Assembly: GCA_964016885.1 (NCBI GenBank)
Contig: OZ024742.1
Span: 42,470,001 to 42,534,000, forward strand
From: Eledone cirrhosa
Lineage: Eukaryota
Length of the DNA stretch: 64,000 nt
Reading direction: 5' to 3'
A model generated the notes under the pieces. It was not told the DNA's origin. It was given only the letters and a program-made list of their open reading frames with translations, and did no database searches. The position numbers and the translations under genes were made by a program. Positions 27,563 through 64,000 of the stretch are shown piece after piece. Positions within the stretch are counted from its first letter, which is position 1; the number at the start of each line of letters is the position of its first letter.

Positions 27563-27808
27563 ATATTTTTCAGTGTCATTTTCTATAAAGACTTGCAGCT
27601 GATCTTTGAGCAACTTCAGTTCCTTCTCAAGTGCCAAGTTATTGGTATCTGGTGTTGGCATGCAGCTACGACTACCACTGCCATGGCCACTACTGCTGTC
27701 ACCATCAACAACTATTGCAGTGGTCGGGACAGTCAGGTCATTGTGTCGCTTAGTCAAATGTTTCTGTAAGTAGGAGTGATGGAGAAACACTTTTGGACAA
27801 TAAACACA
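27563..27808 (-). CDS. DZIP1: DZIP1-like exon with C2H2 zinc finger
   Basis: Poly-T cag acceptor, gtaaat donor; CVYCPKVFLHHSYLQKHLTKRH (C-x2-C...H-x4-H); 246 bp, phase 0/0. Confidence 0.87.
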
Positions 27809-31511: not shown

Positions 31512-31577
31512 CTGTTCATGCTTCTTGATTCTTTCTTCAACACTTCCCAGTTGGTGAGTTAAATATTCCTGGGAGTT
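31512..31577 (-). CDS. DZIP1: DZIP1-like exon
   Basis: cag/gtaaga; NSQEYLTHQLGSVEERIKKHEQ continues the 'HSQEYL' motif; phase 0/0. Confidence 0.87.
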
Positions 31578-31836: not shown

Positions 31837-31908
31837 CAATAAATATTCAATAGTTAACTGAGACAACTTGAACAACTTTATATAATTTGGGTCAATTATT
31901 TTATTGTC
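31837..31908 (-). CDS. DZIP1: DZIP1-like exon (Dzip-like N-terminal domain, internal exon; upstream exons outside window)
   Basis: tctttcttacag acceptor, gtaagt donor; translates DNKIIDPNYIKLFKLSQLTIEYLL, resembling the conserved DZIP1/DZIP1L 'DP..LKL.RLAQ.TIEYLL' motif; phase 0/0. Confidence 0.88.
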
Positions 31909-31971
31909 CTGTAAGAAAGAAAGATGTGTAGAAATAATTATATTAGATAGAAGCACAGAGGATGTGGTTTA

Positions 31972-34900
31972 AGTGGATGGGTAGCTATTAGATAGATGTA
32001 CGGTGGGTGGGTAGCTATTAGATAGATGTACGGTGGGTGGGTAGCTATTAGATAGATGTACGGTGGGTGGGTAGCTATTAGATAGATGTACGGTGGGTGG
32101 GTAGCTATTAGATAGATGTACGGTGGGTGGGTAGCTATTAGATAGATGTACGGTGGGTGGGTAGCTATTAGATAGATGTACGGTGGGTGGGTAGCTATTA
32201 GATAGATGTACGGTGGGTGGGTAGCTATTAGATAGATGTACAGTGGATGGGTAGCTATTAGATAGATGTACGGTGGGTGGGTAGCTATTAGATAGATGTA
32301 CAGTGGGTGCGTAGCTATTAGATAGATGTACGGTGGGTGGGTAGCTATTAGATAGATGTACGGTGGGTGGGTAGCTATTAGATAGATGTACAGTGGATGG
32401 GTAGCTATTAGATAGATGTACGGTGGGTGGGTAGCTATTAGATAGATGTACAGTGGGTGGGTAGCTATTAGATAGATGTACGGTGGGTGGGTAGCTATTA
32501 GATAGATGTACGGTGGGTGGGTAGCTATTAGATAGATGTACAGTGGGTGGGTAGCTATTAGATAGATGTACAGTGGGTGGGTAGCTATTAGATAGATGTA
32601 CGGTGGGTGGGTAGCTATTAGATAGATGTACGGTGGGTGGGTAGCTATTAGATAGATGTACAGTGGGTGGGTAGCTATTAGATAGATGTACGGTGGGTGG
32701 GTAGCTATTAGATAGATGTACAGTGGATGGGTAGCTATTAGATAGATGTACGGTGGGTGGGTAGCTATTAGATAGATGTACGGTGGGTGGGTAGCTATTA
32801 CATAGATGTACGGTGGGTGGGTAGCTATTAGATAGATGTACGGTGGGTGGGTAGCTATTAGATAGATGTACGGTGGGTGGGTAGCTATTAGATAGATGTA
32901 CGGTGGGTGGGTAGCTATTAGATAGATGTACGGTGGGTGGGTAGCTATTAGATGGATGTACGGTGGGTGGGTAGCTATTAGATAGATGTACGGTGGGTGG
33001 GTAGCTATCAGATAGATGTACTGTGGGTGAGTAGCTATTAGATAGATGTCAGTGGGTGGGTAGCTATTAGATAGATGTACGGTGGGTGGGTAGCTATTAG
33101 ATAGATGTACGGTGGGTGGGTAGCTATTAGATAGATGTACGGTGGGTGGGTAGCTATTAGATAGATGTACGGTGGGTGGGTAGCTATTAGATAGATGTAC
33201 GGTGGGTGGGTAGCTATTAGATAGATGTACGGTGGGTGGGTAGCTATCAGATAGATGTACTGTGGGTGAGTAGCTATTAGATAGATGTCAGTGGGTGGGT
33301 AGCTATTAGATAGAAGTACGGTGGGTGGGTAGCTATGAGATAGATGTACGGTGGGTGGGTAGCTATTAGATAGATGTACGGTGGGTGGGTAGCTATTAGA
33401 TAGATGTACGGTGGGTGGGTAGCTATTAGATAGATGTACGGTGGGTGGGTAGCTATTAGATAGATGTACGGTGGGTGGGTAGCTATTAGATAGATGTACG
33501 GTGGGTGGGTAGCTATTAGATAGATGTCAGTGGGTGGGTAGCTATTAGATAGATGTACAGTGGGTGGGTAGCTATGAGATAGATGTACAGTGGGTGGGTA
33601 GCTATTAAATAGATGTACGGTGGGTGGGTAGCTATTAGATAGATGTACGGTGGGTGGGTAGCTATTAGATAGATGTACGGTGGGTGGGTAGCTATTAGAT
33701 AAATGTACGGTGGGTGGGTAGCTATTAGATAAATGTACGGTGGGTGGGTAGCTATTAGATAGATGTACAGTGGGTGGGTAGCTATTAGATAAATGTACGG
33801 TGGGTGGGTAGCTATTAGATAGATGTACGGTTGGTGGGTAGCTATTAGATAGATGTACAGTGGGTGGGTAGCTATTAGATAGATGTACGGTGGGTGGGTA
33901 GCTATTAGATTGAGGTACTGTGGGTGGGTAGCTATTAGATAGATGTACAGTGGGTGGGTAGCTATTAGATAAATGTACAGTGGGTGGGTAGCTATTAGAT
34001 AAATGTAGTGGGTGGGTAGCTATTAGATAGATGTACAGTGGGTGGGTAGCTATTAGATAGATGTACGGTGGGTGGGTAGTTATTAGATAGATGTACAGTG
34101 GGTGGGTAGCTATTAGATAGATGTACAGTGGGTGGGTAGCTATTAGATAAATGTACAGTGGGTGGGTAGCTATTAGATAAATATAGTGGGTGGGTAGCTA
34201 TTAGATAGATGTACAGTGGGTGGGTAGCTATTAGATAGATGTACGGTGGGTGGGTAGCTATTAGATAGATGTACAGTGGGTGGGTAGCTATTAGATTGAG
34301 GTACTGTGGGTGGGTAGCTATTAGATAGATGTACAGTGGGTGGGTAGCTATTAGATAGATGTACAGTGGGTGGGTAGCTATTAGATAGATGTACGGTGGG
34401 TGGGTAGCTATTAGATAGATGTACGGTGGGTGGGTAGCTATTAGATAGATGTACAGTGGGTGGGTAGCTATTAGATAGATGTACGGTGGGTGGGTAGCTA
34501 TTAGATAGATGTACAGTGGGTGGGTAGCTATTAGATAGATGTACGGTGGGTGGGTAGCTATTAGATAGATGTACGGTGGGTGGGTAGCTATTAGATAGAT
34601 GTACGGTGGGTGGGTAGCTATTAGATAGATGTACAGTGGGTGGGTAGCTATTAGATAGATGTAAGGTGGGTGGGTAGCTATTAGATAGATGTACGGTGGG
34701 TGGGTAGCTATTAGATAGATGTACGGTGGGTGGGTAGCTATTAGATAGATGTACTGTGGGTGGGTAGCTATTAGATAGATGTACAGTGGGTGGGTAGATA
34801 TTAGATAGATGTACAGTGGGTGGGTAGCTATTAGATAGATGTACAGTGGGTGGGTAGCTATTAGATAGATGTACAGTCGGTGGGTAGCTATTAGATTGAG

Positions 34901-37900
34901 GTACTGTGGGTGGGTAGCTATTAGATAGATGTACAGTCGGTGGGTAGCTATTAGATAGATGTACAGTGGGCGGGTAGCTATTAGATAGATGTACAGTGGG
35001 TGGGTAGCTATTAGATAGATGTACAGTCGGTGGGTAGCTATTAGATAAATGTACAGAGGGTGGGTAGCTATTAGATAGATGTACAGTGGGTGGGTAGCTA
35101 TTAGATAGATGTACGGTGGGTGGGTAGCTATTAGATAGATGTACAGTGGGTGGGTAGCTATTAGATAGATGTACAGTGGGTGGGTAGCTATTAGATTGAG
35201 GTACAGTGGGTGGGTAGCTATTAGATAGATGTACAGTGGGTGGGTAGCTATTAGATAGATGTACAGTGGGTGGGTAGCTATTAGATAGATGTACAGTGGG
35301 TGGGTAGCTATTAGATTGAGGTACAGTGGGTGGGTAGCTATTAGATTGAGGTACAGTGGGTGGGTAGCTATTAGATAGATGTACAGTGTGTGGGTAGCTA
35401 TTAGATAGATGTAGTGGGTGGGTAGCTATTAGATAGATGTACGGTGGGTGGGTAGCAATTAGATTGAGGTATTGTGGGTGGGTAGCTATTAGATTGAGGT
35501 ACTGTGGGTGAGTAGCTATTAGATAGATGTACAGTGGGTGGGTAGCTATTAGATAGATGTACGGTGGGTGGGTAGCTATTAGATAGATGTAAGGTGGGTG
35601 GGTAGCTATTAGATAGATGTACGGTGGGTGGATAGCTATTAGATTGATGTACAGTGGGTGGGTAGCTATTAGATTGAGGTACAGTTGTTGGGTAGCTATT
35701 AGATTGAGGTACAGTGGGTGGGTAGCTATTAGATTGAGGTACAGTGGGTGGGTAGCTATTAGATAGATGTACAGTGGGTGGGTTGCTATTAGATTGAGGT
35801 ACAGTGGGTGGGTAGCTATTAGATTTAGGTACAGTGGGTGGGTAGCTATTAGATAGATGTACAGTGGGTGGGTAGCTATTAGATAGATGTAAGGTGGGTG
35901 GGTAGCTATTAGATAGATGTACGGTGGGTGGATAGCTATTAGATTGATGTACAGTGGGTGGGTAGCTATTAGATTGAGGTACAGTTGTTGGGTAGCTATT
36001 AGATAGATGTACAGTGGGTGGGTAGCTATTAGATAGATGTACAGTGGGTGGGTAGCTATTAGATTGAGGTACAGTGGGTGGGTAGCTATTAGATAGATGT
36101 ACAGTGGGTGGGTAGCTATTAGATTGAGGTACAGTTGTTGGGTAGCTATTAGATAGATGTACAGTGGGTGGGTAGCTATTAGATTGAGGTACAGTGGGTG
36201 GGTAGCTATTAGATAGATGTACAGTGGGTGGGTAGCTATTAGATTGAGGTACAGTTGTTGGGTAGCTATTAGATAGATGTACAGTGGGTGGGTAGCTATT
36301 AGATTGAGGTACAGTGGGTGGGTAGCTATTAGATAGATGTACAGTGGGTGGGTAGCTATTAGATTGAGGTACTGTGGGTGAGTAGCTATTAGATAGATGT
36401 ACAGTGGGTGGGTAGCTATTAGATAGATGTACAGTGGGTGGGTAGCTATTAGATAGATGTACGGTGGGTGGGTAGCTATTAGATAGATGTACGGTGGGTG
36501 GGTAGCTATTAGATAAATGTACGGTGGGTGGGTAGCTATTAGATAATTGTACGGTGGGTGGGTAGCTATTAGATAGATGTACAGTGGGTGGGTAGCTATT
36601 AGATAGATGTACAGTGGGTGGGTAGCTATTAGATAGATGTACAGTGGGTGGGTAGCTATGAGATAGATGTACAGTGGGTGGGTAGCTATTAGATAGATGT
36701 ACGGTGGGTAGCTATTAGATAGATGTACGCATGGTGGGTAGCTATTAGATAGATGTACGCAGGGTGGGTAGCTATTAGATAAATGTAGTGGGTGGGTAGC
36801 TATTAGATAGATGTACAGTGGGTGGGTAGCTATTAGATAGATGTACAGTGGGTGGGTAACTATTAAATAGATGTACGGTGGGTGGGTAGCTATTAGATAG
36901 ATGTACTGTGGGTGGGTAGCTATTAGATAGATGTACAGTGGGTGGGTAGCTATTAGATAGATGTACAGTGGGTGGCTAGCTATTAGATAGATGTACAGTG
37001 GGTGGGTAACTATTAGATAGATGTACGGTGGGTGGGTAGCTATTAGATAGATGTACAGTGGGTGGGTAGCTATTAGATAGATGTACAGTGGGTGGGTAGC
37101 TATTAGATAGATGTACGGTGGGTGGCTAGCTATTAGATAGATGTACTGTGGGTGGGTAGATATTAGATAGATGTACAGTGGGTGGGTAGCTATTAGATAG
37201 ATGTACAGTGGGTGGGTAGCTATTAGATAGATGTACAGTGGGTAGGTAGCTATTAGATAGATGTACAGAGGGTGGGTAGCTATTAGATAGATGTACAGTG
37301 GGTGGGTAGCTATTAGATAGATGTACAGTGGGTGGGTAGCTATTAGATAGATGTACGGTGGGTGGGTAGCTATTAGATTGAGGTACGGTGGGTGGGTAGC
37401 TATTAGATAGATGTACAGTGGGTGGGTAGCTATTAGATAGATGTACGGTGGGTGGAGAGCTATTAGATAGATGTACAGTGGGTGGGTAGCTATTAGATTG
37501 AGGTATAGTGGGTGGGTAGCTATTAGATAGATGTACAGTGGGTGGGTAGCTATTAGATAGATGTACAGTGGGTGGGTAGCTATTAGATTGAGGTACTGTG
37601 GGTGGGTAGCTATTAGATAGATGTACAGTGGGTGGGTAGCTATTGGATAGATGTACAGTGGGTGGGTAGCTATTAGATAGGTGTACAGTGGGTAGCTATT
37701 AGATAGATGTATGCAGGGTGGGTAGCTATTAGATAGATGTACAGTGGGTGGGTAACTATTAGATACATGTACAGTGGGTGGGTAGCTATTAGATAGATGT
37801 ACAGTGGGTGGGTAGCTATTAGATAGATGTACAGTGTGTGGGTAGCTATTAGATAGATGTACAGTGGGTGGGTAGCTATTAGATAGATGCACTGTGGGTG

Positions 37901-40900
37901 GGTAGCTATTAGATAGAAGTACAGTGGGTGGGTAGCTATTAGTTAGATGTACAGTGGGTGGGTAGCTATTAGATAGATGCACATTGGGTGGGTAGCTATT
38001 AGATAGATGTACAGTGGGTGGGTAGCTATTAGATAGATGTACGGTGGGTGGGTAGCTATTAGATAGATGTACAGTGGGTGGGTAGCTATTAGATAGATGT
38101 ACAGTGGGTGGGTAGCTATTAGATAGATGTACAGTCGGTGGGTAGCTATTAGATAGGTGTACAGTGGGTAGCTATTAGATAGATGTATGCAGGGTGGGTA
38201 GCTATTAGATAGATGTACAGTGGGTGGGTAGCTATTAGATACATGTACAGTGGGTGGGTAGCTATTAGATAGATGTACAGTGTGTGGGTAGCTATTAGAT
38301 AGATGTACAGTGTGTGGGTAGCTATTAGATAGATGTACAGTGGGTGGGTAGCTATTAGATAGATGTACAGTGGGTGGATAGCTATTAGATAGATGTACAG
38401 TGGGTAGCTATTAGATAGATGTATGCAGAGTGGGTAGCTATTAGATAGATGTACAGTGGGTGGGTAGCTATTAGATACATGTACAGTGGGTGGGTAGCTA
38501 TTAGATAGATGTACAGTGGGTGGGTAGCTACTAGATAGATGTACAGTGTGTGGGTAGCTATTAGATAGATGTACAGTGGGTGGGTAGCTATTAGATAGAT
38601 GTACAGTGGGTGGATAGCTATTAGATAGATGTACAGTGGGTGGGTAGCTATTAGATAGATGTACAGTGGGTGGATAGCTATTAGATAGATGTACAGTGGG
38701 TGGGTAGCTATTAGATAGATGTACGGTGGGTGGGTAGCTATTAGATAGATGTACGGTGGGTGGGTAGCTATTAGATAGATGTACGGTGGGTGGGTAGCTA
38801 TTAGATGGATGTACGGTGGGTGGGTAGCTATTAGATAGATGTACGGTGGGTGGGTAGCTATCAGATAGATGTACTGTGGGTGAGTAGCTATTAGATAGAT
38901 GTCAGTGGGTGGGTAGCTATTAGATAGATGTACGGTGGGTGGGTAGCTATTAGATAGATGTACGGTGGGTGGGTAGCTATTAGATAGATGTACGGTGGGT
39001 GGGTAGCTATTAGATAGATGTACGGTGGGTGGGTAGCTATTAGATAGATGTACGGTGGGTGGGTAGCTATTAGATAGATGTACGGTGGGTGGGTAGCTAT
39101 CAGATAGATGTACTGTGGGTGAGTAGCTATTAGATAGATGTCAGTGGGTGGGTAGCTATTAGATAGAAGTACGGTGGGTGGGTAGCTATGAGATAGATGT
39201 ACGGTGGGTGGGTAGCTATTAGATAGATGTACGGTGGGTGGGTAGCTATTAGATAGATGTACGGTGGGTGGGTAGCTATTAGATAGATGTACGGTGGGTG
39301 GGTAGCTATTAGATAGATGTACGGTGGGTGAGTAGCTATTAGATAGATGTACGGTGGGTGGGTAGCTATTAGATAGATGTCAGTGGGTGGGTAGCTATTA
39401 GATAGATGTACAGTGGGTGGGTAGCTATGAGATAGATGTACAGTGGGTGGGTAGCTATTAAATAGATGTACGGTGGGTGGGTAGCTATTAGATAGATGTA
39501 CGGTGGGTGGGTAGCTATTAGATAGATGTACGGTGGGTGGGTAGCTATTAGATAAATGTACGGTGGGTGGGTAGCTATTAGATAAATGTACGGTGGGTGG
39601 GTAGCTATTAGATAGATGTACAGTGGGTGGGTAGCTATTAGATAAATGTACGGTGGGTGGGTAGCTATTAGATAGATGTACGGTGGGTGGGTAGCTATTA
39701 GATAGATGTACAGTGGGTGGGTAGCTATTAGATAGATGTACGGTGGGTGGATAGCTATTAGATTGAGGTACTGTGGGTGGGTAGCTATTAGATAGATGTA
39801 CAGTGGGTGGGTAGCTATTAGATAAATGTACAGTGGGTGGGTAGCTATTAGATAAATGTAGTGGGTGGGTAGCTATTAGATAGATGTACAGTGGGTGGGT
39901 AGCTATTAGATAGATGTACGGTGGGTGGGTAGTTATTAGATAGATGTACAGTGGGTGGGTAGCTATTAGATAGATGTACAGTGGGTGGGTAGCTATTAGA
40001 TAAATGTACAGTGGGTGGGTAGCTATTAGATAAATATAGTGGGTGGGTAGCTATTAGATAGATGTACAGTGGGTGGGTAGCTATTAGATAGATGTACGGT
40101 GGGTGGGTAGCTATTAGATAGATGTACAGTGGGTGGGTAGCTATTAGATTGAGGTACTGTGGGTGGGTAGCTATTAGATAGATGTACAGTGGGTGGGTAG
40201 CTATTAGATAGATGTACAGTGGGTGGGTAGCTATTAGATAGATGTACGGTGGGTGGGTAGCTATTAGATAGATGTACGGTGGGTGGGTAGCTATTAGATA
40301 GATGTACAGTGGGTGGGTAGCTATTAGATAGATGTACGGTGGGTGGGTAGCTATTAGATAGATGTACAGTGGGTGGGTAGCTATTAGATAGATGTACGGT
40401 GGGTGGGTAGCTATTAGATAGATGTACGGTGGGTGGGTAGCTATTAGATAGATGTACGGTGGGTGGGTAGCTATTAGATAGATGTACAGTGGGTGGCTAG
40501 CTATTAGATAGATGTAAGGTGGGTGGGTAGCTATTAGATAGATGTACGGTGGGTGGGTAGCTATTAGATAGATGTACGGTGGGTGGGTAGCTATTAGATA
40601 GATGTACTGTGGGTGGGTAGCTATTAGATAGATGTACAATGGGTGGGTAGCTATTAGATAGATGTACAGTGGGTGGGTAGCTATTAGATAGATGTACAGT
40701 GGGTGGGTAGCTATTAGATAGATGTACAGTCGGTGGGTAGCTATTAGATTGAGGTACTGGGGGTGGGTAGCTATTAGATAGATGTACAGTCGGTGGGTAG
40801 CTATTAGATAGATGTACAGTGGGCGGGTAGCTATTAGATAGATGTACAGTGGGTGGGTAGCTATTAGATAGATGTACAGTCGGTGGGTAGCTATTAGATA

Positions 40901-43900
40901 AATGTACAGAGGGTGGGTAGCTATTAGATAGATGTACAGTGGGTGGGTAGCTATTAGATAGATGTACGGTGGGTGGGTAGCTATTAGATAGATGTACAGT
41001 GGGTGGGTAGCTATTAGATAGATGTACAGTGGGTGGGTAGCTATTAGATTGAGGTACAGTGGGTGGGTAGCTATTAGATAGATGTACAGTGGGTGGGTAG
41101 CTATTAGATAGATGTACAGTGGGTGGGTAGCTATTAGATAGATGTACAGTGGGTGGGTAGCTATTAGATTGAGGTACAGTGGGTGGGTAGCTATTAGATT
41201 GAGGTACAGTGGGTGGGTAGCTATTAGATAGATGTACAGTGGGTGGGTAGCTATTAGATAGATGTAGTGGGTGGGTAGCTATTAGATAGATGTACGGTGG
41301 GTGGGTAGCAATTAGATTGAGGTATTGTGGGTGGGTAGCTATTAGATTGAGGTACTGTGGGTGAATAGCTATTAGATAGATGTACAGTGGGTGGGTAGCT
41401 ATTAGATAGATGTACGGTGGGTGGGTAGCTATTAGATAGATGTAAGGTGGGTGGGTAGCTATTAGATAGATGTACGGTGGGTGGATAGCTATTAGATTGA
41501 TGTACAGTGGGTGGGTAGCTATTAGATTGAGGTACAGTTGTTGGGTAGCTATTAGATTGAGGTACAGTGGGTGGGTAGCTATTAGATTGAGGTACAGTGG
41601 GTGGGTAGCTATTAGATAGATGTACAGTGGGTGGGTTGCTATTAGATTGAGGTACAGTGGGTGGGTAGCTATTAGATTTAGGTACAGTGGGTGGGTAGCT
41701 ATTAGATAGATGTACAGTGGGTGGGTAGCTATTAGATAGATGTAAGGTGGGTGGGTAGCTATTAGATAGATGTACGGTGGGTGGATAGCTATTAGATTGA
41801 TGTACAGTGGGTGGGTAGCTATTAGATTGAGGTACAGTTGTTGGGTAGCTATTAGATAGATGTACAGTGGGTGGGTAGCTATTAGAAAGATGTACAGTGG
41901 GTGGGTAGCTATTAGATTGAGGTACAGTGGGTGGGTAGCTATTAGATAGATGTACAGTGGGTGGGTAGCTATTAGATTGAGGTACAGTTGTTGGGTAGCT
42001 ATTAGATAGATGTACAGTGGGTGGGTAGCTATTAGATTGAGGTACAGTGGGTGGGTAGCTATTAGATAGATGTACAGTGGGTGGGTAGCTATTAGATTGA
42101 GGTACAGTTGTTGGGTAGCTATTAGATAGATGTACAGTGGGTGGGTAGCTATTAGATTGAGGTACAGTGGGTGGGTAGCTATTAGATAGATGTACAGTGG
42201 GTGGGTAGCTATTAGATTGAGGTACTGTGGGTGAGTAGCTATTAGATAGATGTACAGTGGGTGGGTAGCTATTAGATAGATGTACAGTGGGTGGGTAGCT
42301 ATTAGATAGATGTACGGTGGGTGGGTAGCTATTAGATAGATGTACGGTGGGTGGGTAGCTATTAGATAAATGTACGGTGGGTGGGTAGCTATTAGAGAAA
42401 TGTACGGTGGGTGGGTAGCTATTAGATAGATGTACAGTGGGTGGGTAGCTATTAGATAGATGTACAGTGGGTGGGTAGCTATTAGATAGATGTACAGTGG
42501 GTGGGTAGCTATGAGATAGATGTACAGTGGGTGGGTAGCTATTAGATAGATGTACGGTGGGTAGCTATTAGATAGATGTACGCATGGTGGGTAGCTATTA
42601 GATAGATGTACGCAGGGTGGGTAGCTATTAGATAAATGTAGTGGGTGGGTAGCTATTAGATAGATGTACAGTGGGTGGGTAGCTATTAGATAGATGTACA
42701 GTGGGTGGGTAACTATTAGATAGATGTACGGTGGGTGGGTAGCTATTAGATAGATGTACTGTGGGTGGGTAGCTATTAGATAGATGTACAGTGGGTGGGT
42801 AGCTATTAGATAGATGTACAGTGGGTGGCTAGCTATTAGATAGATGTACAGTGGGTGGGTAACTATTAGATAGATGTACGGTGGGTGGGTAGCTATTAGA
42901 TAGATGTACAGTGGGTGGGTAGCTATTAGATAGATGTACAGTGGGTGGGTAGCTATTAGATAGATGTACGGTGGGTGGCTAGCTATTAGATAGATGTACT
43001 GTGGGTGGGTAGATATTAGATAGATGTACAGTGGGTGGGTAGCTATTAGATAGATGTACAGTGGGTGGGTAGCTATTAGATAGATGTACAGTGGGTAGGT
43101 AGCTATTAGATAGATGTACAGAGGGTGGGTAGCTATTAGATAGATGTACAGTGGGTGGGTAGCTATTAGATAGATGTACAGTGGGTGGGTAGCTATTAGA
43201 TAGATGTACGGTGGGTGGGTAGCTATTAGATTGAGGTACGGTGGGTGGGTAGCTATTAGATAGATGTACAGTGGGTGGGTAGCTATTAGATAGATGTACG
43301 GTGGGTGGAGAGCTATTAGATAGATGTACAGTGGGTGGGTAGCTATTAGATTGAGGTATAGTGGGTGGGTAGCTATTAGATAGATGTACAGTGGGTGGGT
43401 AGCTATTAGATAGATGTACAGTGGGTGGGTAGCTATTAGATTGAGGTACTGTGGGTGGGTAGCTATTAGATAGATGTACAGTGGGTGGGTAGCTATTGGA
43501 TAGATGTACAGTGGGTGGGTAGCTATTAGATAGGTGTACAGTGGGTAGCTATTAGATAGATGTATGCAGGGTGGGTAGCTATTAGATAGATGTACAGTGG
43601 GTGGGTAACTATTAGATACATGTACAGTGGGTGGGTAGCTATTAGATAGATGTACAGTGGGTGGGTAGCTATTAGATAGATGTACAGTGTGTGGGTAGCT
43701 ATTAGATAGATGTACAGTGGGTGGGTAGCTATTAGATAGATGCACTGTGGGTGGGTAGCTATTAGATAGAAGTACAGTGGGTGGGTAGCTATTAGTTAGA
43801 TGTACAGTGGGTGGGTAGCTATTAGATAGATGCACATTGGGTGGGTAGCTATTAGATAGATGTACAGTGGGTGGGTAGCTATTAGATAGATGTACGGTGG

Positions 43901-46900
43901 GTGGGTAGCTATTAGATAGATGTACAGTGGGTGGGTAGCTATTAGATAGATGTACAGTGGGTGGGTAGCTATTAGATAGATGTACAGTCGGTGGGTAGCT
44001 ATTAGATAGGTGTACAGTGGGTAGCTATTAGATAGATGTATGCAGGGTGGGTAGCTATTAGATAGATGTACAGTGGGTGGGTAGCTATTAGATACATGTA
44101 CAGTGGGTGGGTAGCTATTAGATAGATGTACAGTGGGTGGGTAGCTATTAGATAGATGTACAGTGTGTGGGTAGCTATTAGATAGATGTACAGTGGGTGG
44201 GTAGCTATTAGATAGATGTACAGTGGGTGGATAGCTATTAGATAGATGTACAGTGGGTAGCTATTAGATAGATGTATGCAGGGTGGGTAGCTATTAGATA
44301 GATGTACAGTGGGTGGGTAGCTATTAGATACATGTACAGTGGGTGGGTAGCTATTAGATAGATGTACAGTGGGTGGGTAGCTATTAGATAGATGTACAGT
44401 GTGTGGGTAGCTATTAGATAGATGTACAGTGGGTGGGTAGCTATTAGATAGATGTACAGTGGGTGGATAGCTATTAGATAGATGTACAGTGGGTAGCTAT
44501 TAGATAGATGTATGCAGGGTGGGTAGCTATTAGATAGATGTACAGTGGGTGGGTAGCTATTAGATACATGTACAGTGGGTGGGTAGCTATTAGATAGATG
44601 TACAGTGGGTGGGTAGCTACTAGATAGATGTACAGTGTGTGGGTAGCTATTAGATAGATGTACAGTGGGTGGGTAGCTATTAGATAGATGTACAGTGGGT
44701 GGATAGCTATTAGATAGATGTACAGTGGGTGGGTAGCTATTAGATAGATGTACAGTGGGTGGATAGCTATTAGATAGATGTACAGTGGGTGGGTAGCTAT
44801 TAGATAGATGTACGGTGGGTGGGTAGCTATTAGATAGATGTACGGTGGGTGGGTAGCTATTAGATAGATGTACGGTGGGTGGGTAGCTATTAGATGAATG
44901 TACGGTGGGTGGGTAGCTATTAGATAGATGTACGGTGGGTGGGTAGCTATCAGATAGATGTACTGTGGGTGAGTAGCTATTAGATAGATGTCAGTGGGTG
45001 GGTAGCTATTAGATAGATGTACGGTGGGTGGGTAGCTATTAGATAGATGTACGGTGGGTGGGTAGCTATTAGATAGATGTACGGTGGGTGGGTAGCTATT
45101 AGATAGATGTACGGTGGGTGGGTAGCTATTAGATAGATGTACGGTGGGTGGGTAGCTATTAGATAGATGTACGGTGGGTGGGTAGCTATCAGATAGATGT
45201 ACTGTGGGTGAGTAGCTATTAGATAGATGTCAGTGGGTGGGTAGCTATTAGATAGAAGTACGGTGGGTGGGTAGCTATGAGATAGATGTACGGTGGGTGG
45301 GTAGCTATTAGATAGATGTACGGTGGGTGGGTAGCTATTAGATAGATGTACGGTGGGTGGGTAGCTATTAGATAGATGTACGGTGGGTGGGTAGCTATTA
45401 GATAGATGTACGGTGGGTGAGTAGCTATTAGATAGATGTACGGTGGGTGGGTAGCTATTAGATAGATGTCAGTAGGTGGGTAGCTATTAGATAGATGTAC
45501 AGTGGGTGGGTAGCTATGAGATAGATGTACAGTGGGTGGGTAGCTATTAAATAGATGTACGGTGGGTGGGTAGCTATTAGATAGATGTACGGTGGGTGGG
45601 TAGCTATTAGATAGATGTACGGTGGGTGGGTAGCTATTAGATAAATGTACGGTGGGTGGGTAGCTATTAGATAAATGTACGGTGGGTGGGTAGCTATTAG
45701 ATAGATGTACAGTGGGTGGGTAGCTATTAGATAAATGTACGGTGGGTGGGTAGCTATTAGATAGATGTACGGTGGGTGGGTAGCTATTAGATAGATGTAC
45801 AGTGGGTGGGTAGCTATTAGATTGAGGTACTGTGGGTGGGTAGCTATTAGATAGATGTACAGTGGGTGGGTAGCTATTAGATAAATGTACAGTGGGTGGG
45901 TAGCTATTAGATAAATGTAGTGGGTGGGTAGCTATTAGATAGATGTACAGTGGGTGGGTAGCTATTAGATAGATGTACGGTGGGTGGGTAGTTATTAGAT
46001 AGATGTACAGTGGGTGGGTAGCTATTAGATAGATGTACAGTGGGTGGGTAGCTATTAGATAAATGTACAGTGGGTGGGTAGCTATTAGATAAATATAGTG
46101 GGTGGGTAGCTATTAGATAGATGTACAGTGGGTGGGTAGCTATTAGATAGATGTACGGTGGGTGGGTAGCTATTAGATAGATGTACAGTGGGTGGGTAGC
46201 TATTAGATTGAGGTACTGTGGGTGGGTAGCTATTAGATAGATGTACAGTGGGTGGGTAGCTATTAGATAGATGTACAGTGGGTGGGTAGCTATTAGATAG
46301 ATGTACGGTGGGTGGGTAGCTATTAGATAGATGTACGGTGGGTGGGTAGCTATTAGATAGATGTACAGTGGGTGGGTAGCTATTAGATAGATGTACGGTG
46401 GGTGGGTAGCTATTAGATAGATGTACAGTGGGTGGGTAGCTATTAGATAGATGTACGGTGGGTGGGTAGCTATTAGATAGATGTACGGTGGGTGGGTAGC
46501 TATTAGATAGATGTACGGTGGGTGGGTAGCTATTAGATAGATGTACAGTGGGTGGCTAGCTATTAGATAGATGTAAGGTGGGTGGGTAGCTATTAGATAG
46601 ATGTACGGTGGGTGGGTAGCTATTAGATAGATGTACGGTGGGTGGGTAGCTATTAGATAGATGTACTGTGGGTGGGTAGCTATTAGATAGATGTACAGTG
46701 GGTGGGTAGCTATTAGATAGATGTACAGTGGGTGGGTAGCTATTAGATAGATGTACAGTGGGTGGGTAGCTATTAGATAGATGTACAGTCGGTGGGTAGC
46801 TATTAGATTGAGGTACTGTGGGTGGGTAGCTATTAGATAGATGTACAGTCGGTGGGTAGCTATTAGATAGATGTACAGTGGGCGGGTAGCTATTAGATAG

Positions 46901-49900
46901 ATGTACAGTGGGTGGGTAGCTATTAGATAGATGTACAGTCGGTGGGTAGCTATTAGATAAATGTACAGAGGGTGGGTAGCTATTAGATAGATGTACTGTG
47001 GGTGGGTAGCTATTAGATAGATGTACGGTGGGTGGGTAGCTATTAGATAGATGTACAGTGGGTGGGTAGCTATTAGATAGATGTACAGTGGGTGGGTAGC
47101 TATTAGATTGAGGTACAGTGGGTGGGTAGCTATTAGATAGATGTACAGTGGGTGGGTAGCTATTAGATAGATGTACAGTGGGTGGGTAGCTATTAGATAG
47201 ATGTACAGTGGGTGGGTAGCTATTAGATTGAGGTACAGTGGGTGGGTAGCTATTAGATTGAGGTACAGTGGGTGGGTAGCTATTAGATAGATGTACAGTG
47301 GGTGGGTAGCTATTAGATAGATGTAGTGGGTGGGTAGCTATTAGATAGATGTACGGTGGGTGGGTAGCAATTAGATTGAGGTATTGTGGGTGGGTAACTA
47401 TTAGATTGAGGTACTGTGGGTGAATAGCTATTAGATAGATGTACAGTGGGTGGGTAGCTATTAGATAGATGTACGGTGGGTGGGTAGCTATTAGATAGAT
47501 GTAAGGTGGGTGGGTAGCTATTAGATAGATGTACGGTGGGTGGATAGCTATTAGATTGATGTACAGTGGGTGGGTAGCTATTAGATTGAGGTACAGTTGT
47601 TGGGTAGCTATTAGATTGAGGTACAGTGGGTGGGTAGCTATTAGATTGAGGTACAGTGGGTGGGTAGCTATTAGATAGATGTACAGTGGGTGGGTTGCTA
47701 TTAGATTGAGGTACAGTGGGTGGGTAGCTATTAGATTTAGGTACAGTGGGTGGGTAGCTATTAGATAGATGTACAGTGGGTGGGTAGCTATTAGATAGAT
47801 GTAAGGTGGGTGGGTAGCTATTAGATAGATGTACGGTGGGTGGATAGCTATTAGATTGATGTACAGTGGGTGGGTAGCTATTAGATTGAGGTACAGTTGT
47901 TGGGTAGCTATTAGATAGATGTACAGTGGGTGGGTAGCTATTAGAAAGATGTACAGTGGGTGGGTAGCTATTAGATTGAGGTACAGTGGGTGGGTAGCTA
48001 TTAGATAGATGTACAGTGGGTGGGTAGCTATTAGATTGAGGTACAGTTGTTGGGTAGCTATTAGATAGATGTACAGTGGGTGGGTAGCTATTAGATTGAG
48101 GTACAGTGGGTGGGTAGCTATTAGATAGATGTACAGTGGGTGGGTAGCTATTAGATTGAGGTACAGTTGTTGGGTAGCTATTAGATAGATGTACAGTGGG
48201 TGGGTAGCTATTAGATTGAGGTACAGTGGGTGGGTAGCTATTAGATAGATGTACAGTGGGTGGGTAGCTATTAGATTGAGGTACTGTGGGTGAGTAGCTA
48301 TTAGATAGATGTACAGTGGGTGGGTAGCTATTAGATAGATGTACAGTGGGTGGGTAGCTATTAGATAGATGTACGGTGGGTGGGTAGCTATTAGATAGAT
48401 GTACGGTGGGTGGGTAGCTATTAGATAAATGTACGGTGGGTGGGTAGCTATTAGATAAATGTACGGTGGGTGGGTAGCTATTAGATAGATGTACAGTGGG
48501 TGGGTAGCTATTAGATAGATGTACAGTGGGTGGGTAGCTATTAGATAGATGTACAGTGGGTGGGTAGCTATGAGATAGATGTACAGTGGGTGGGTAGCTA
48601 TTAGATAGATGTACGGTGGGTAGCTATTAGATAGATGTACGCATGGTGGGTAGCTATTAGATAGATGTACGCAGGGTGGGTAGCTATTAGATAAATGTAG
48701 TGGGTGGGTAGCTATTAGATAGATGTACAGTGGGTGGGTAGCTATTAGATAGATGTACAGTGGGTGGGTAACTATTAGATAGATGTACGGTGGGTGGGTA
48801 GCTATTAGATAGATGTACTGTGGGTGGGTAGCTATTAGATAGATGTACAGTGGGTGGGTAGCTATTAGATAGATGTACAGTGGGTGGCTAGCTATTAGAT
48901 AGATGTACAGTGGGTGGGTAACTATTAGATAGATGTACGGTGGGTGGGTAGCTATTAGATAGATGTACAGTGGGTGGGTAGCTATTAGATAGATGTACAG
49001 TGGGTGGGTAGCTATTAGATAGATGTACGGTGGGTGGCTAGCTATTAGATAGATGTACTGTGGGTGGGTAGATATTAGATAGATGTACAGTGGGTGGGTA
49101 GCTATTAGATAGATGTACAGTGGGTGGGTAGCTATTAGATAGATGTACAGTGGGTAGGTAGCTATTAGATAGATGTACAGAGGGTGGGTAGCTATTAGAT
49201 AGATGTACAGTGGGTGGGTAGCTATTAGATAGATGTACAGTGGGTGGGTAGCTATTAGATAGATGTACGGTGGGTGGGTAGCTATTAGATTGAGGTACGG
49301 TGGGTGGGTAGCTATTAGATAGATGTACAGTGGGTGGGTAGCTATTAGATAGATGTACGGTGGGTGGAGAGCTATTAGATAGATGTACAGTGGGTGGGTA
49401 GCTATTAGATTGAGGTATAGTGGGTGGGTAGCTATTAGATAGATGTACAGTGGGTGGGTAGCTATTAGATAGATGTACAGTGGGTGGGTAGCTATTAGAT
49501 TGAGGAACTGTGGGTGGGTAGCTATTAGATAGATGTACAGTGAGTGGGTAGCTATTGGATAGATGTACAGTGGGTGGGTAGCTATTAGATAGGTGTACAG
49601 TGGGTAGCTATTAGATAGATGTATGCAGGGTGGGTAGCTATTAGATAGATGTACAGTGGGTGGGTAACTATTAGATACATGTACAGTGGGTGGGTAGCTA
49701 TTAGATAGATGTACAGTGGGTGGGTAGCTATTAGATAGATGTACAGTGTGTGGGTAGCTATTAGATAGATGTACAGTGGGTGGGTAGCTATTAGATAGAT
49801 GCACTGTGGGTGGGTAGCTATTAGATAGAAGTACAGTGGGTGGGTAGCTATTAGTTAGATGTACAGTGGGTGGGTAGCTATTAGATAGATGCACATTGGG

Positions 49901-52900
49901 TGGGTAGCTATTAGATAGATGTACAGTGGGTGGGTAGCTATTAGATAGATGTACGGTGGGTGGGTAGCTATTAGATAGATGTACAGTGGGTGGGTAGCTA
50001 TTAGATAGATGTACAGTGGGTGGGTAGCTATTAGATAGATGTACAGTCGGTGGGTAGCTATTAGATAGGTGTACAGTGGGTAGCTATTAGATAGATGTAT
50101 GCAGGGTGGGTAGCTATTAGATAGATGTACAGTGGGTGGGTAGCTATTAGATACATGTACAGTGGGTGGGTAGCTATTAGATAGATGTACAGTGGGTGGG
50201 TAGCTATTAGATAGATGTACAGTGTGTGGGTAGCTATTAGATAGATGTACAGTGGGTGGGTAGCTATTAGATAGATGTACAGTGGGTGGATAGCTATTAG
50301 ATAGATGTACAGTGGGTAGCTATTAGATAGATGTATGCAGGGTGGGTAGCTATTAGATAGATGTACAGTGGGTGGGTAGCTATTAGATACATGTACAGTG
50401 GGTGGGTAGCTATTAGATAGATGTACAGTGGGTGGGTAGCTATTAGATAGATGTACAGTGTGTGGGTAGCTATTAGATAGATGTACAGTGGGTGGGTAGC
50501 TATTAGATAGATGTACAGTGGGTGGATAGCTATTAGATAGATGTACAGTGGGTAGCTATTAGATAGATGTATGCAGGGTGGGTAGCTATTAGATAGATGT
50601 ACAGTGGGTGGGTAGCTATTAGATACATGTACAGTGGGTGGGTAGCTATTAGATAGATGTACAGTGGGTGGGTAGCTACTAGATAGATGTACAGTGTGTG
50701 GGTAGCTATTAGATAGATGTACAGTGGGTGGGTAGCTATTAGATAGATGTACAGTGGGTGGGTAGCTATTAGATAGATGTACAGTGGGTGGGTAGCTATT
50801 AGATAGATGTACAGTGGGTGGGTAGCTATTAGATAGATGTACAGTCGGTGGGTAGCTATTAGATAGATGTACAGTGGGTGGGTAGCTATTAGATAGATGT
50901 ACAGTCGGTGGGTAGCTATTAGATAGATGTACAGTGGGTGGGTAGCTATTAGATTGAGGTACTGTGGGTGGGTAGCTATTAGATAGATGTACAGTGGGTG
51001 GGTAGCTATTAGATAAATGTACAGTGGGTGGGTAGCTATTAGATAAATGTAGTGGGTGGGTAGCTATTAGATAGATGTACAGTGGGTGGGTAGCTATTAG
51101 ATAGATGTACGGTGGGTGGGTAGCTATTAGATAGATGTACAGTGGGTGGGTAGCTATTAGATAGATGTACAGTGGGTGGGTAGCTATTAGATAGATATAC
51201 AGTGGGTGGGTAGCTATTAGATAAATGTAGTGGGTGGGTAGCTATTAGATAGATGTACAGTGGGTGGGTAGCTATTAGATAGATGTACGGTGGGTGGGTA
51301 GCTATTAGATAGATGTACGGTGGGTGGGTAGCTATTAGATAGATGTACAGTGGGTGGGTAGCTATTAGATAGATGTACGGTGGGTGGGTAGCTATTAGAT
51401 AGATGTACAGTGGGTGGGTAGCTATTAGATAGATGTACGGTGGGTGGGTAGCTATTAGATAGATGTACGGTGGGTGGGTAGCTATTAGATAGATGTACGG
51501 TGGGTGGGTAGCTATTAGATAGATGTACGGTGGGTGGGTAGCTATTAGATAGATGTACAGTGGGTGGGTAGCTATTAGATAGATGTAAGGTGGGTGGGTA
51601 GCTATTAGATAGATGTACGGTGGGTGGGTAGCTATTAGATAGATGTACGGTGGGTGGGTAGCTATTAGATAGATGTACGGTGGGTGGGTAGCTATTAGAT
51701 TGAGGTACTGTGGGTGGGTAGCTATTAGATAGATGTACAGTGGGTGGGTAGCTATTAGATAGATGTACAGTGGGTGGGTAGCTATTAGATAGATGTACAG
51801 TGGGTGGGTAGCTATTAGATAGATGTACAGTGGGTGGGTAGCTATTAGATTGAGGTACTGTGGGTGGGTAGCTATTAGATAGATGTACAGTCGGTGGGTA
51901 GCTATTAGATAGATGTACAGTGGGCGGGTAGCTATTAGATAGATGTAAAGTGGGTGGGTAGCTATTAGATAGATGTACAGTCGGTGGGTAGCTATTAGAT
52001 AAATGTACAGAGGGTGGGTAGCTATTAGACAGATGTACAGTGGGTGGGTAGCTATTAGATAGATGTACGGTGGGTGGGTAGCTATTAGATAGATGTACAG
52101 TGGGTGGGTAGCTATTAGATAGATGTACAGTGGGTGGGTAGCTATTAGATTGAGGTACAGTGGGTGGGTAGCTATTAGATAGATGTACAGTGGGTGGGTA
52201 GCTATTAGATAGATGTACAGTGGGTGGGTAGCTATTAGATAGATGTACAGTGGGTGGGTAGCTATTAGATTGATGTACAGTGGGTGGGTAGCTATTAGAT
52301 TGAGGTACAGTGGGTGGGTAGCTATTAGATAGATGTACAGTGGGTGGGTAGCTATTAGATAGATGTAGTGGGTGGGTAGCTATTAGATAGATGTACGGTG
52401 GGTGGGTAGCAATTAGATTGAGGTATTGTGGGTGGGTAGCTATTAGATTGAGGTACTGTGGGTGAGTAGCTATTAGATAGATGTACAGTGCGTGGGTAGC
52501 TATTAGATAGATGTACGGTGGGTGGGTAGCTATTAGATAGATGTACAGTGGGTGGGTAGCTATTAGATAGATGTACGGTGGATGGGTAGCTATTAGATTG
52601 AGGTACAGTGGGTGGGTAGCTATTAGATTGAGGTACAGTGGGTGGGTAGCTATTAGATAGATGTACAGTGGGTGGGTTGCTATTAGATTGAGGTACAGTG
52701 GGTGGGTAGCTATTAGATTTAGGTACAGTGGGTGGGTAGCTATTAGATAGATGTACAGTGGGTGGGTAGCTATTAGATAGATGTAAGGTGGGTGGGTAGC
52801 TATTAGATAGATGTACGGTGGGTGGATAGCTATTAGATTGATGTACAGTGGGTGGGTAGCTATTAGATTGAGGTACAGTTGTTGGGTAGCTATTAGATAG

Positions 52901-58900: not shown

Positions 58901-61900
58901 AGGTACAGTGGGTGGGTAGCTATTAGATTGAGGTACAGTGGGTGGGTAGCTATTAGATAGATGTACAGTGGGTGGGTAGCTATTAGATAGATGTAGTGGG
59001 TGGGTAGCTATTAGATAGATGTACGGTGGGTGGGTAGCAATTAGATTGAGGTATTGTGGGTGGGTAGCTATTAGATTGAGGTACTGTGGGTGAGTAGCTA
59101 TTAGATAGATGTACAGTGGGTGGGTAGCTATTAGATAGATGTACGGTGGGTGGGTAGCTATTAGATAGATGTACAGTGGGTGGGTAGCTATTAGATAGAT
59201 GTACGGTGGATGGGTAGCTATTAGATTGAGGTACAGTGGGTGGGTAGCTATTAGATTGAGGTACAGTGGGTGGGTAGCTATTAGATAGATGTACAGTGGG
59301 TGGGTTGCTATTAGATTGAGGTACAGTGGGTGGGTAGCTATTAGATTTAGGTACAGTGGGTGGGTAGCTATTAGATAGATGTACAGTGGGTGGGTAGCTA
59401 TTAGATAGATGTAAGGTGGGTGGGTAGCTATTAGATAGATGTACGGTGGGTGGATAGCTATTAGATTGATGTACAGTGGGTGGGTAGCTATTAGATTGAG
59501 GTACAGTTGTTGGGTAGCTATTAGATAGATGTACAGTGGGTGGGTAGCTATTAGATAGATGTACAGTGGGTGGGTAGCTATTAGATTGAGGTACAGTGGG
59601 TGGGTAGCTATTAGATAGATGTACAGTGGGTGGGTAGCTATTAGATTGAGGTACAGTTGTTGGGTAGCTATTAGATAGATATACAGTGGGTGGGTAGCTA
59701 TTAGATTGAGGTACAGTGGGTGGGTAGCTATTAGATAGATGTACAGTGGGTGGGTAGCTATTAGATTGAGGTACAGTTGTTGGGTAGCTATTAGATAGAT
59801 GTACAGTGGGTGGGTAGCTATTAGATTGAGGTACAGTGGGTGGGTAGCTATTAGATAGATGTACAGTGGGTGGGTAGCTATTAGATTGAGGTACTGTGGG
59901 TGAGTAGCTATTAGATAGATGTACAGTGGGTGGGTAGCTATTAGATAGATGTACAGTGGGTGGGTAGCTATTAGATAGATGTACGGTGGGTGGGTAGTTA
60001 TTAGATAGATGTACGGTGGGTGGGTAGCTATTAGATAAATGTACGGTGGGTGGGTAGCTATTAGATAAATGTACGGTGGGTGGGTAGCTATTAGATAGAT
60101 GTACAGTGGGTGGGTAGCTATTAGATAGATGTACAGTGGGTGGGTAGCTATTAGATAGATGTACAGTGGGTGGGTAGCTATGAGATAGATGTACAGTGGG
60201 TGGGTAGCTATTAGATAGATGTACGGTGGGTAGCTATTAGATAGATGTACGCATGGTGGGTAGCTATTAGATAGATGTACGCAGGGTGGGTAGCTATTAG
60301 ATAAATGTAGTGGGTGGGTAGCTATTAGATAGATGTACAGTGGGTGGGTAGCTATTAGATAGATGTACAGTGGGTGGGTAACTATTAGATAGATGTACGG
60401 TGGGTGGGTAGCTATTAGATAGATGTACTGTGGGTGGGTAGCTATTAGATAGATGTACAGTGGGTGGGTAGCTATTAGATAGATGTACAGTGGGTGGCTA
60501 GCTATTAGATAGATGTACGGTGGGTGGGTAGCTATTAGATAGATGTACGGTGGGTGGGTAGCTATTAGATAGATGTACAGTGGGTGGGTAGCTATTAGAT
60601 AGATGTACGGTGGATGGGTAGCTATTAGATAGATGTACAGTGGGTGGGTAGCTATTAGATAGATGTACAGTGGGTGGGTAGCTATTAGATAGATGTACAG
60701 TGGGTGGGTAGCTATTAGATAGATGTACAGTGGGTGGGTAGCTATTAGATAGATGTACAGTGGGTGAGTAGCTATTAGATTGAGGTACTGTGGGTGGGTA
60801 GCTATTAGATAGATGTACAGTCGGTGGGTAGCTATTAGATAGATGTACAGTGGGCGGGTAGCTATTAGATAGATGTACAGTGGGTGGGTAGCTATTAGAT
60901 AGATGTACAGTCGGTGGGTAGCTATTAGATAAATGTACAGAGGGTGGGTAGCTATTAGATAGATGTACAGTGGGTGGGTATCTATTAGATAGATGTACGG
61001 TGGGTGGGTAGCTATTAGATAGATGTACAGTGGGTGGGTAGCTATTAGATAGATGTACAGTGGGTGGGTAGCTATTAGATTGAGGTACAGTGGGTGGGTA
61101 GCTATTAGATAGATGTACAGTGGGTGGGTAGCTATTAGATAGATGTAGTGGGTGGGTAGCTATTAGATAGATGTACGGTGGGTGGGTAGCAATTAGATTG
61201 CGGTATTGTGGGTGGGTAGCTATTAGATTGAGGTACTGTGGGTGAGTAGCTATTAGATAGATGTACAGTGGGTGGGTAGCTTTTAGATAGATGTACGGTG
61301 GGTGGGTAGCTATTAGATAGATGTACAGTGGGTGGGTAGCTATTAGATAGATGTACATGGATGGGTAGCTATTAGATTGAGGTACAGTGGGTGGGTAGCT
61401 ATTAGATTGAGGTACAGTGGGTGGGTAGCTATTAGATAGATGTACAGTGGGTGGGTTGCTATTAGATTGAGGTACAGTGGGTGGGTAGCTATTAGATTTA
61501 GGTACAGTGGGTGGGTAGCTATTAGATAGATGTACAGTGGGTGGGTAGCTATTAGATAGATGTAAGGTGGGTGGGTAGCTATTAGATAGATGTACGGTGG
61601 GTTGATAGCTATTAGATTGATGTACAGTGGGTGGGTAGCTATTAGATTGAGGTACAGTTGTTGGGTAGCTATTAGATAGATGTACAGTGGGTGGGTAGCT
61701 ATTAGATAGATGTACAGTGGGTGGGTAGCTATTAGATTGAGGTACAGTGGGTGGGTAGCTATTAGATTGAGGTACAGTTGTTGGGTAGCTATTAGATAGA
61801 TGTACAGTGGGTGGGTAGCTATTAGATAGATGTACAGTGGGTGGGTAGCTATTAGATTGAGGTACAGTGGGTGGGTAGCTATTAGATAGATGTACAGTGG

Positions 61901-64000
61901 GTGGGTAGCTATTAGATTGAGGTACAGTTGTTGGGTAGCTATTAGATAGATGTACAGTGGGTGGGTAGCTATTAGATTGAGGTACAGTGGGTGGGTAGCT
62001 ATTAGATAGATGTACAGTGGGTGGGTAGCTATTAGATAGATGTACAGTGGGTAGGTAGCTATTAGATAGATGTACAGAGGGTGGGTAGCTATTAGATAGA
62101 TGTACAGTGGGTGGGTAGCTATTAGATAGATGTACAGTGGGTGGGTAGCTATTAGATAGATGTACGGTGGGTGGGTAGCTATTAGATTGAGGTACGGTGG
62201 GTGGGTAGCTATTAGATAGATGTACAGTGGGTGGGTAGCTATTAGATAGATGTACGGTGGGTGGAGAGCTATTAAAAAAGATGTACAGTGGGTGGGTAGC
62301 TATTAGATTGAGGTATAGTGGGTGGGTAGCTATTAGATAGATGTACAGTGGGTGGGTAGCTATTAGATAGATGTACAGTGGGTGGGTAGCTATTAGATTG
62401 AGGTACTGTGGGTGGGTAGCTATTAGATAGATGTACAGTGGGTGGGTAGCTATTAGATAGATGTACAGTGGGTGGGTAGCTATTAGATAGGTGTACAGTG
62501 GGTAGCTATTAGATAGATGTACTGTGGGTGGGTAGCTATTAGATAGAAGTACAGTGGGTGGGTAGCTATTAGTTAGATGTACAGTGGGTGGGTAGCTATT
62601 AGATAGATGCACATTGGGTGGGTAGCTATTAGATAGATGTACAGTGGGTGGGTAGCTATTAGATAGATGTACGGTGGGTGGGTAGCTATTAGATAGATGT
62701 ACAGTGGGTGGGTAGCTATTAGATTGAGGTACTGTGGGTGGGTAGCTATTAGATAGATGTACAGTCGGTGGGTAGCTATTAGATAGATGTACAGTGGGCG
62801 GGTAGCTATTAGATAGATGTACAGTGGGTGGGTAGCTATTAGATAGATGTACAGTCGGTGGGTAGCTATTAGATAAATGTACAGAGGGTGGGTAGCTATT
62901 AGATAGATGTACAGTGGGTGGGTAGCTATTAGATAGATGTACGGTGGGTGGGTAGCTATTAGATAGATGTACAGTGGGTGGGTAGCTATTAGATAGATGT
63001 ACAGTGGGTGGGTAGCTATTAGATTGAGGTACAGTGGGTGGGTAGCTATTAGATAGATGTACAGTGGGTGGGTAGCTATTAGACAGATGTACAGTGGGTG
63101 GGTAGCTATTAGATAGATGTACAGTGGGTGGGTAGCTATTAGATTGAGGTATAGTGGGTGGGTAGCTATTAGATTGAGGTACAGTGGGTGGGTAGCTATT
63201 AGATAGATGTACAGTGGGTGGGTAGCTATTAGATAGATGTAGTGGGTGGGTAGCTATTAGATAGATGTACGGTGGGTGGGTAGCAATTAGATTGAGGTAT
63301 TGTGGGTGGGTAGCTATTAGATTGAGGTACTGTGGGTGAGTAGCTATTAGATAGATGTACAGTGGGTGGGTAGCTATTAGATAGATGTACGGTGGGTGGG
63401 TAGCTATTAGATAGATGTACAGTGGGTGGGTAGCTATTAGATAGATGTACGGTGGATGGGTAGCTATTAGATTGAGGTACAGTGGGTGGGTAGCTATTAG
63501 ATTGAGGTACAGTGGGTGGGTAGCTATTAGATAGATGTACAGTGGGTGGGTTGCTATTAGATTGAGGTACAGTGGGTGGGTAGCTATTAGATTTAGGTAG
63601 TGGGTGGGTAGCTATTAGATAGATGTACAGTGGGTGGGTAGCTATTAGATAGATGTAAGGTGGGTGGGTAGCTATTAGATAGATGTACGGTGGGTGGATA
63701 GCTATTAGATTGATGTACAGTGTGTGGGTAGCTATTAGATTGAGGTACAGTTGTTGGGTAGCTATTAGATAGATGTACAGTGGGTGGGTAGCTATTAGAT
63801 AGATGTACAGTGGGTGGGTAGCTATTAGATTGAGGTACAGTGGGTGGGTAGCTATTAGATAGATGTACAGTGGGTGGGTAGCTATTAGATTGAGGTACAG
63901 TTGTTGGGTAGCTATTAGATAGATATACAGTGGGTGGGTAGCTATTAGATTGAGGTACAGTGGGTGGGTAGCTATTAGATAGATGTACAGTGGGTGGGTA
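31972..64000. repeat. 30-bp satellite array (TAGCTATTAGATAGATGTACRGTGGGTGGG)n, >32 kb, with higher-order repeats
   Basis: Uninterrupted head-to-tail monomers to window end; rare 26/28/29-bp monomers; diagnostic variants recur every ~6 kb. Confidence 0.99.

Follow-up and report, generated by a model that had tools for sequence, protein, structure and literature searches.

The stretch of DNA analysed here, the window, comprises 64,000 nucleotides (C3:42,470,001-42,534,000) of a 3.0-Gb animal assembly. It contains coding exons of the gene DZIP1 on the reverse strand and the larger part of a 30-bp minisatellite array, which fills nearly the whole of the first coding intron of this gene. Positions past the end of the window are given as extended coordinates, i.e. 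the window numbering continued along scaffold C3, from which the next 200 kb were fetched to follow the array and the gene. The locus lies at 42.5 Mb of this 379-Mb gene-bearing scaffold. Tandem repeats were called with Tandem Repeats Finder (TRF), and the exons of DZIP1 were located by a whole-genome profile search with PF13815 and by mapping of orthologue proteins (tblastn). The parts of the gene are as follows.

79,353-79,526 extended (C3:42,549,353-42,549,526), reverse strand: upstream DZIP1 coding exon, outside the window, with ATG, 58 amino acids and PF13815 positions 5-51
31,909-79,352 extended (31,909-64,000 in the window), reverse strand: first coding intron of DZIP1, 47,444 bp, phase 0, GTAAGT...CAG, 98.9% array
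31,837-31,908, reverse strand: DZIP1 exon, orthologue residues 59-82, spliced to the following exon in a contig from run X4
31,512-31,577, reverse strand: DZIP1 exon, orthologue residues 83-104, from orthologue mapping and X4
2-28,889, reverse strand: 17 further DZIP1 coding segments with approximate tblastn limits, the C2H2 finger exon lying near 27,563-27,811

The exon at 31,908-31,837 is open, has no Met and matches positions 51-72 of the Pfam domain Dzip-like_N (E 2.5e-5). A pyrimidine tract and CAG precede it, and the array begins 64 bp from it, much as the initial annotation had described an exon with a splice acceptor inside the N-terminal domain and a repeat starting about 60 bp upstream and running off the window. 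That annotation had also suggested a search for the DZIP1 N-terminus beyond 64,000. Of the four matches from the whole-genome PF13815 search, only one exceeded the cut-off (positions 5-51, E 7.8e-7), and it lay shortly beyond the array on the same strand; the window exon came second, and the two remaining matches were noise (E > 4). The upstream coding exon thus located lies 477 bp past the array end on the same contig and strand, and misassembly, which upstream exons on another scaffold or strand would have indicated, is not apparent at the assembly level. The stretch 79,526-79,353 corresponds to residues 1-58 of the orthologues and 31,908-31,837 to residues 59-82. The protein of the upstream exon is 93-95% identical to those of Argonauta and Octopus vulgaris, which places the window among octopods.

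DZIP1 is a single gene in this octopod genome, with its exons colinear with the orthologues on one gap-free stretch. Its domain order, Dzip-like_N (positions 5-51 over the cut-off, and 51-72) followed by zf-C2H2 (E 0.01, under the cut-off), agrees with DZIP1/DZIP1L (Iguana, PF13815) in combining the Dzip domain with a C2H2 finger, and only the intron is unusual here. Elsewhere in the gene, 18 gaps of 235-6,628 bp separate the matched coding segments, and the array makes up 46.9 kb of a coding span of at least 79.5 kb (59%).

The array and its internal structure are listed below; no strand is assigned to these features.

31,972-64,000: window part of the 30-bp minisatellite array, from TRF and anchor steps, continuing gap-free past the window
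32,843-50,700: three higher-order blocks of 5.85-6.06 kb, with a mutual identity of 99.66-99.85% by pairwise alignment
63,599-64,000: window part of a second higher-order period, consisting of two 6.3-kb stretches at a distance of 8,070 bp (extended 63,599-69,898 and 71,669-77,968) that are 99.46% identical
31,909-31,971: intron 3' end with the acceptor region, of unique sequence; its margin towards the array resembles a decayed unit

Within the window TRF called one array with a period of 30, 1,072 copies and a score of 54,648, far beyond chance. The whole array extends from 31,972 to 78,875 (C3:42,548,875), i.e. over 46,904 bp or ~1,570 units, so that the uninterrupted satellite of more than 32 kb proposed earlier for a DZIP1 intron is in fact longer. 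There is no N (assembly gap) anywhere within it. The 1,570 anchors are separated by 1,569 steps, each of 26-31 bp and 1,487 of them exactly 30 bp, which means that the array is uninterrupted. It is a mosaic of 104 distinct unit variants, the commonest of them seen 580 times, with a mean divergence from the consensus of 1.1 of 30 bases per unit. The unit yields only a 10-residue repeat when its coding potential is considered.

The unit is private to this locus. In an exact genome-wide search with a 27-mer of the unit, all 840 matches (840/840) fell inside the DZIP1 array and none on the other strand; the array is thus single-locus by exact matches, while diverged copies may exist elsewhere. A dispersed or shared satellite family was rejected on the grounds that exact unit matches are confined to the array and that no 16-mers are common with the other arrays sampled in the genome. 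When the array was written as a string of variant letters, the higher-order blocks became visible. Their identities of 99.46-99.85% compare with 93.8% for an out-of-register control (pairwise alignment), and the longest exact duplicate within the array is 1,516 bp. The near identity of the blocks points to recent local expansion, and the resemblance of the acceptor-side flank to a decayed unit fits an origin of the array in place.

Since the array fills an intron of DZIP1, any full-length transcript crosses ~1,570 copies. The earlier expectation that RNA polymerase II (Pol II) must traverse more than 1,000 copies of a C-rich 30-mer therefore agrees with the complete array, the RNA strand of which is 37% C and 7% G, the template strand being G-rich. 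The RNA strand contains 0 GTRAG, 0 AGGT and 0 AATAAA/ATTAAA, compared with 57, 285 and 8, respectively, on the other strand. Since AGGT is absent from the RNA strand, recursive splicing at such sites within the array was rejected. There were 0 matches to the canonical short-loop G-quadruplex in the array, and only a long-loop pattern (n=575) was found, on the template strand.

Three sequencing runs bear on the locus. X4 is a library of unknown tissue which, as none of the listed runs is on record as RNA, was treated as RNA on its content alone: it contains exon-only pieces and a contig joining 31,577 to 31,837 across a 259-bp intron, and DZIP1 was on this basis regarded as transcribed and spliced. 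Repeat words occur in X4 at a depth of 2-4, near the 2.5 of the exon, despite the 1,570 copies. X1 is DNA, perhaps from the assembly's own sample. Its summed contig depth over the repeat was ~46,000 compared to 8-16 on unique pieces, which is no copy number and gives only an order of thousands of copies. The X1 contigs stop at the array edge, and one of them covers unique sequence to 31,960 and runs on for another 46 letters, which would be enough to reach the first unit. X7 is DNA with another organism label and contains a related tandem repeat, differing in 11 of 69 letters, with a summed depth of ~130-160, compared to ~20 for single-copy sequence (~8x). A further run, X8, yielded no contigs.

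Arrays of this size are common in the genome. In a sample of 118 evenly spaced 9-kb stretches from 27 scaffolds (1.06 Mb in total; of 120 positions chosen, two on C16 did not exist), TRF calls covered 27% of the bases, and arrays of at least 4 kb with a period of at least 10 covered 8%. Nine of the 118 samples were wholly tandem array (7.6%, 95% confidence interval 3.5-14%), and a tenth was 89% array. The ten sampled arrays have no 16-mers in common with one another, for any two, or with the DZIP1 array. Based on pattern searches, flanks and probes, with continuity between probes assumed, three of them are 23.4, 30.3 and 70.2 kb long and seven are at least 49, 50, 90, 130, 220, 220 and 512 kb; eight of the ten are thus at least 47 kb, equal to or longer than the DZIP1 array. 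Sampling of this kind favours long arrays, and the counts were therefore corrected by 1/length, which gives very roughly 800-2,100 arrays of at least 47 kb genome-wide, from eight sampled arrays and before sampling error. When the units of four sampled arrays were searched for, the first of the matches listed lay at the sampled locus, and reverse-strand matches numbered 0 for three of the four and 21 of 3,086 for the fourth. The matches listed at their own locus and the near-absence of the reverse strand suggest that these four arrays, too, are single loci.

The longest sampled array is a 34-mer of at least 512 kb (C13:24,789,000 to at least 25,301,000) with 3,065 forward and 21 reverse exact genome-wide matches. 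Seven more unrelated arrays, with periods of 7-89 and lengths from 49 to more than 220 kb, lie on C1, C2, C4, C18 and C28, and a 16-mer array on C18 resembles a telomere-like G-rich unit. Some of the longest sampled arrays may be ordinary centromeric satellites. Scaffolds C1-C4, of 379-443 Mb each, hold over half of the assembly; the other sampled chromosome-scale scaffolds measure 22-136 Mb.

Giant arrays occur in other introns as well. The flanks of four arrays were read: the array on C5 lies in an intron, that on C4 likely in one, and those on C1 and C13 are without a credible flanking exon (Pfam scan of 107/140 flank open reading frames for C1 and, on the left side, of 21/21 for C13). The C5 array, a 26-mer of 30.3 kb, stands between exons of a CNH domain and fills 96% of a 31.4-kb intron (C5:9,992,702-10,024,071). 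The flanking CNH matches share a strand (one at positions 3-66 with E 0.0015, over the cut-off; the other at positions 182-218 with E 0.03, under the cut-off), the donor and acceptor are phase-compatible, and PH-like and C1-like exons lie upstream. We take this CNH/PH/C1-domain kinase gene to be of the citron type, from its domain order; homologue searches did not name it. Its 26-mer and the DZIP1 unit have the word GGGTGGGTA in common, and the template strand is again G-rich. The C4 array, a 33-mer of 23.4 kb, lies upstream of firm exons of TRAP1, a mitochondrial chaperone, and is likely situated in a 103-kb TRAP1 intron (C4:270,981,314-271,084,525). The exon upstream of it is presumably the preceding TRAP1 exon, judged by splice phase; homologue searches did not confirm it. 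Six smaller arrays, each 1.0-2.3 kb long, lie in the same likely intron. Like the DZIP1 array, the C5 array is G-poor on its RNA strand (8%), with 0 GTRAG compared with 197 on the other strand, the corresponding numbers for the array beside TRAP1 being 0 and 1. Two strand-skewed intronic arrays provide a lead on strand bias, not a test of it.

The closest known case is TRACT, a tandem repeat of variable number (VNTR) with a 30-bp unit in intron 3 of human CACNA1C, which is 3-30+ kb long and has a dominant unit with one-base variants (PMC13131567). In the assembly, the DZIP1 array shares with intronic minisatellites and VNTRs a head-to-tail unit of 10-100 bp, a single locus and an intronic position, and like TRACT it reaches tens of kb with a 30-bp unit and a mosaic of variants around a dominant one. 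It differs in its length of 47 kb, in filling 99% of its intron, in its clear 6-8-kb higher-order blocks and in having many counterparts of this kind elsewhere in its genome, and its sequence is unrelated to TRACT. In octopus, simple repeats constitute 14.7% of the genome and the mean intron is 5.4 kb (PMC6279123), with a median of 2,467 bp (PMC10700109). These two papers agree with the present data in that tandem repeats are a major genome component; however, their available parts give only totals, with no description of private 20-500-kb arrays or of introns filled by repeats. The available part of bioRxiv 2025.08.29.672809 contains no mention of satellites. Among the papers listed for octopus and cephalopod satellites, minisatellites, introns and simple repeats, as far as they are openly accessible and apart from their supplements, none was found to give an account of private giant arrays or repeat-filled introns in cephalopods; the repeat tables in supplements of genome papers may be relevant here.

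The interpretation that we favour, with good confidence, is that the first coding intron of DZIP1 consists to 98.9% of a locus-private minisatellite which probably expanded locally through slippage and subsequent unequal duplications of 6-8 kb, and which is likely tolerated rather than selected for a function in sperm. The array would have originated from a small local GATA/GGGT-rich seed, and the block pattern suggests that monomer slippage was followed by repeated, recent unequal duplications. Pol II elongates at 1-3 kb/min. It would thus cross the array in minutes to about an hour, and ordinary splicing would remove the intron, probably helped by an RNA strand free of GTRAG, AGGT and the poly(A) hexamer. 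The array may persist as a nearly harmless feature of a genome in which such arrays often arise.

Several observations weigh against this interpretation. A transcript spanning the 47-kb intron was not seen in X4, the spliced contig of which ends two letters past the junction of the giant intron and therefore does not test it. That donor motifs are lacking is due in part to the low G content (7%) of the RNA strand, and each unit contains a CTAAT resembling a branch point, with an AG but no pyrimidine tract beside it (1,558 CTRAY). Among 15 multi-exon chaperonin and tRNA-synthetase loci, none (0/15) had a gap of more than 18 kb between matched exons, and six gap stretches held no array of more than 3 kb. 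The higher-order blocks differ by just 9-34 bases, so that collapse or over-expansion of whole blocks could alter the exact length of the array. The repeat in X7 is a hint of a short relative or a small ancestral array, but it may lie elsewhere than at the orthologous place.

The near identity of the 6-8-kb blocks could also mean that real array DNA was misjoined into the DZIP1 intron or that its length was inflated by duplicated blocks, and the X1 contigs do end at the array edge. We consider such an artefact unlikely: the rest of the genome lacks the unit, the exons on either side are consecutive ones, as expected, and match in phase, with no N gap between them, the X1 contig extending past 31,960 would reach the first unit, and the X1 depth fits thousands of units. 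By analogy with TRACT in CACNA1C, whose intronic anatomy is the same, the array might instead act as a modest cis-regulator in all tissues, either as an expression quantitative trait or as a protein sponge on nascent RNA. The repeat depth in X4 (one library), being no higher than that of the exon, gives no sign of accumulated repeat RNA, and we regard a regulatory role of this kind as quite improbable.

The initial annotation had likened the intron to the giant introns of the Drosophila Y-loop genes kl-3 and kl-5, in which megabases of simple satellite are transcribed over ~90 h and bound by dedicated RNA-binding proteins (PMC6508621). The repeat would then be kept for delaying or compartmentalising DZIP1 expression in spermatocytes and would bind such proteins. 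There are likenesses: the intron belongs to a gene with a role in sperm, ~99% of it is tandem repeat that must be transcribed, Drosophila Dzip1 has a spermatocyte-specific basal-body role (PMC6904220), and long TRACT alleles accompany lower CACNA1C expression in testis and fibroblasts (PMC13131567). However, all ciliated cells of Drosophila, not sperm alone, depend on Dzip1 (PMC6904220). Instead of an intron of hundreds of kb to megabases, DZIP1 has a private 30-mer in one of 47,444 bp, at least 20-fold below a megabase, and the satellite makes up 59% of the locus and 98.9% of one intron, compared with more than 99% of a Y-loop locus. In addition, the higher-order blocks look very recent, and arrays of equal or larger size are common and sit in a kinase intron and likely in a TRAP1 intron, i.e. 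in genes without a known sperm-specific role. The parallel of intron gigantism with the Y-loops was consequently not upheld, and a Y-loop-like device at DZIP1 appears very unlikely.

It is likely, rather, that the tolerated DZIP1 array is one of roughly a thousand giant local repeat expansions and not a special device of a sperm gene. The locus alone is a large intronic minisatellite of the CACNA1C type, which does not extend the Y-loop story, and the genome-wide pattern of arrays is more interesting than DZIP1 itself. A more far-reaching proposal, which we put forward tentatively and hold to be possible but doubtful, is a genome-wide expansion regime in this octopod lineage, in which about a thousand unrelated local seeds, many of them genic, have grown to 20-500 kb, the intronic ones being filtered by selection for an RNA strand without donor or poly(A) signal and a G-rich template. 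If this were true, DZIP1 would be one marker of the regime, and the genome would offer a natural experiment in the handling of repeat-filled introns by Pol II and the spliceosome. If many of the arrays prove to be intronic, they would allow a direct test of sorting by tissue, strand and splice-signal content, and of the drivers of minisatellite growth.

Some further features were observed in and around DZIP1. A small degenerate 33-bp minisatellite at 24,747-25,325 of the window lies in another DZIP1 intron and may be a seed of this type that has not expanded. A 573-amino-acid reverse-transcriptase reading frame with a PHD-like finger is present on the reverse strand (window 1,448-3,166) within the last of the observed DZIP1 introns, and relatives of it lie at 127-129, 172-175 and 210-215 kb in extended coordinates. 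Exon-like reading frames divergent from DZIP1 are present on the forward strand at extended 104,499-111,353, and they may resemble a TPR plus J-domain co-chaperone. An 8.6-kb array of a 38-mer (extended 199,825-208,420) is located 120 kb from DZIP1, between two reading frames of retrotransposons without long terminal repeats (non-LTR).

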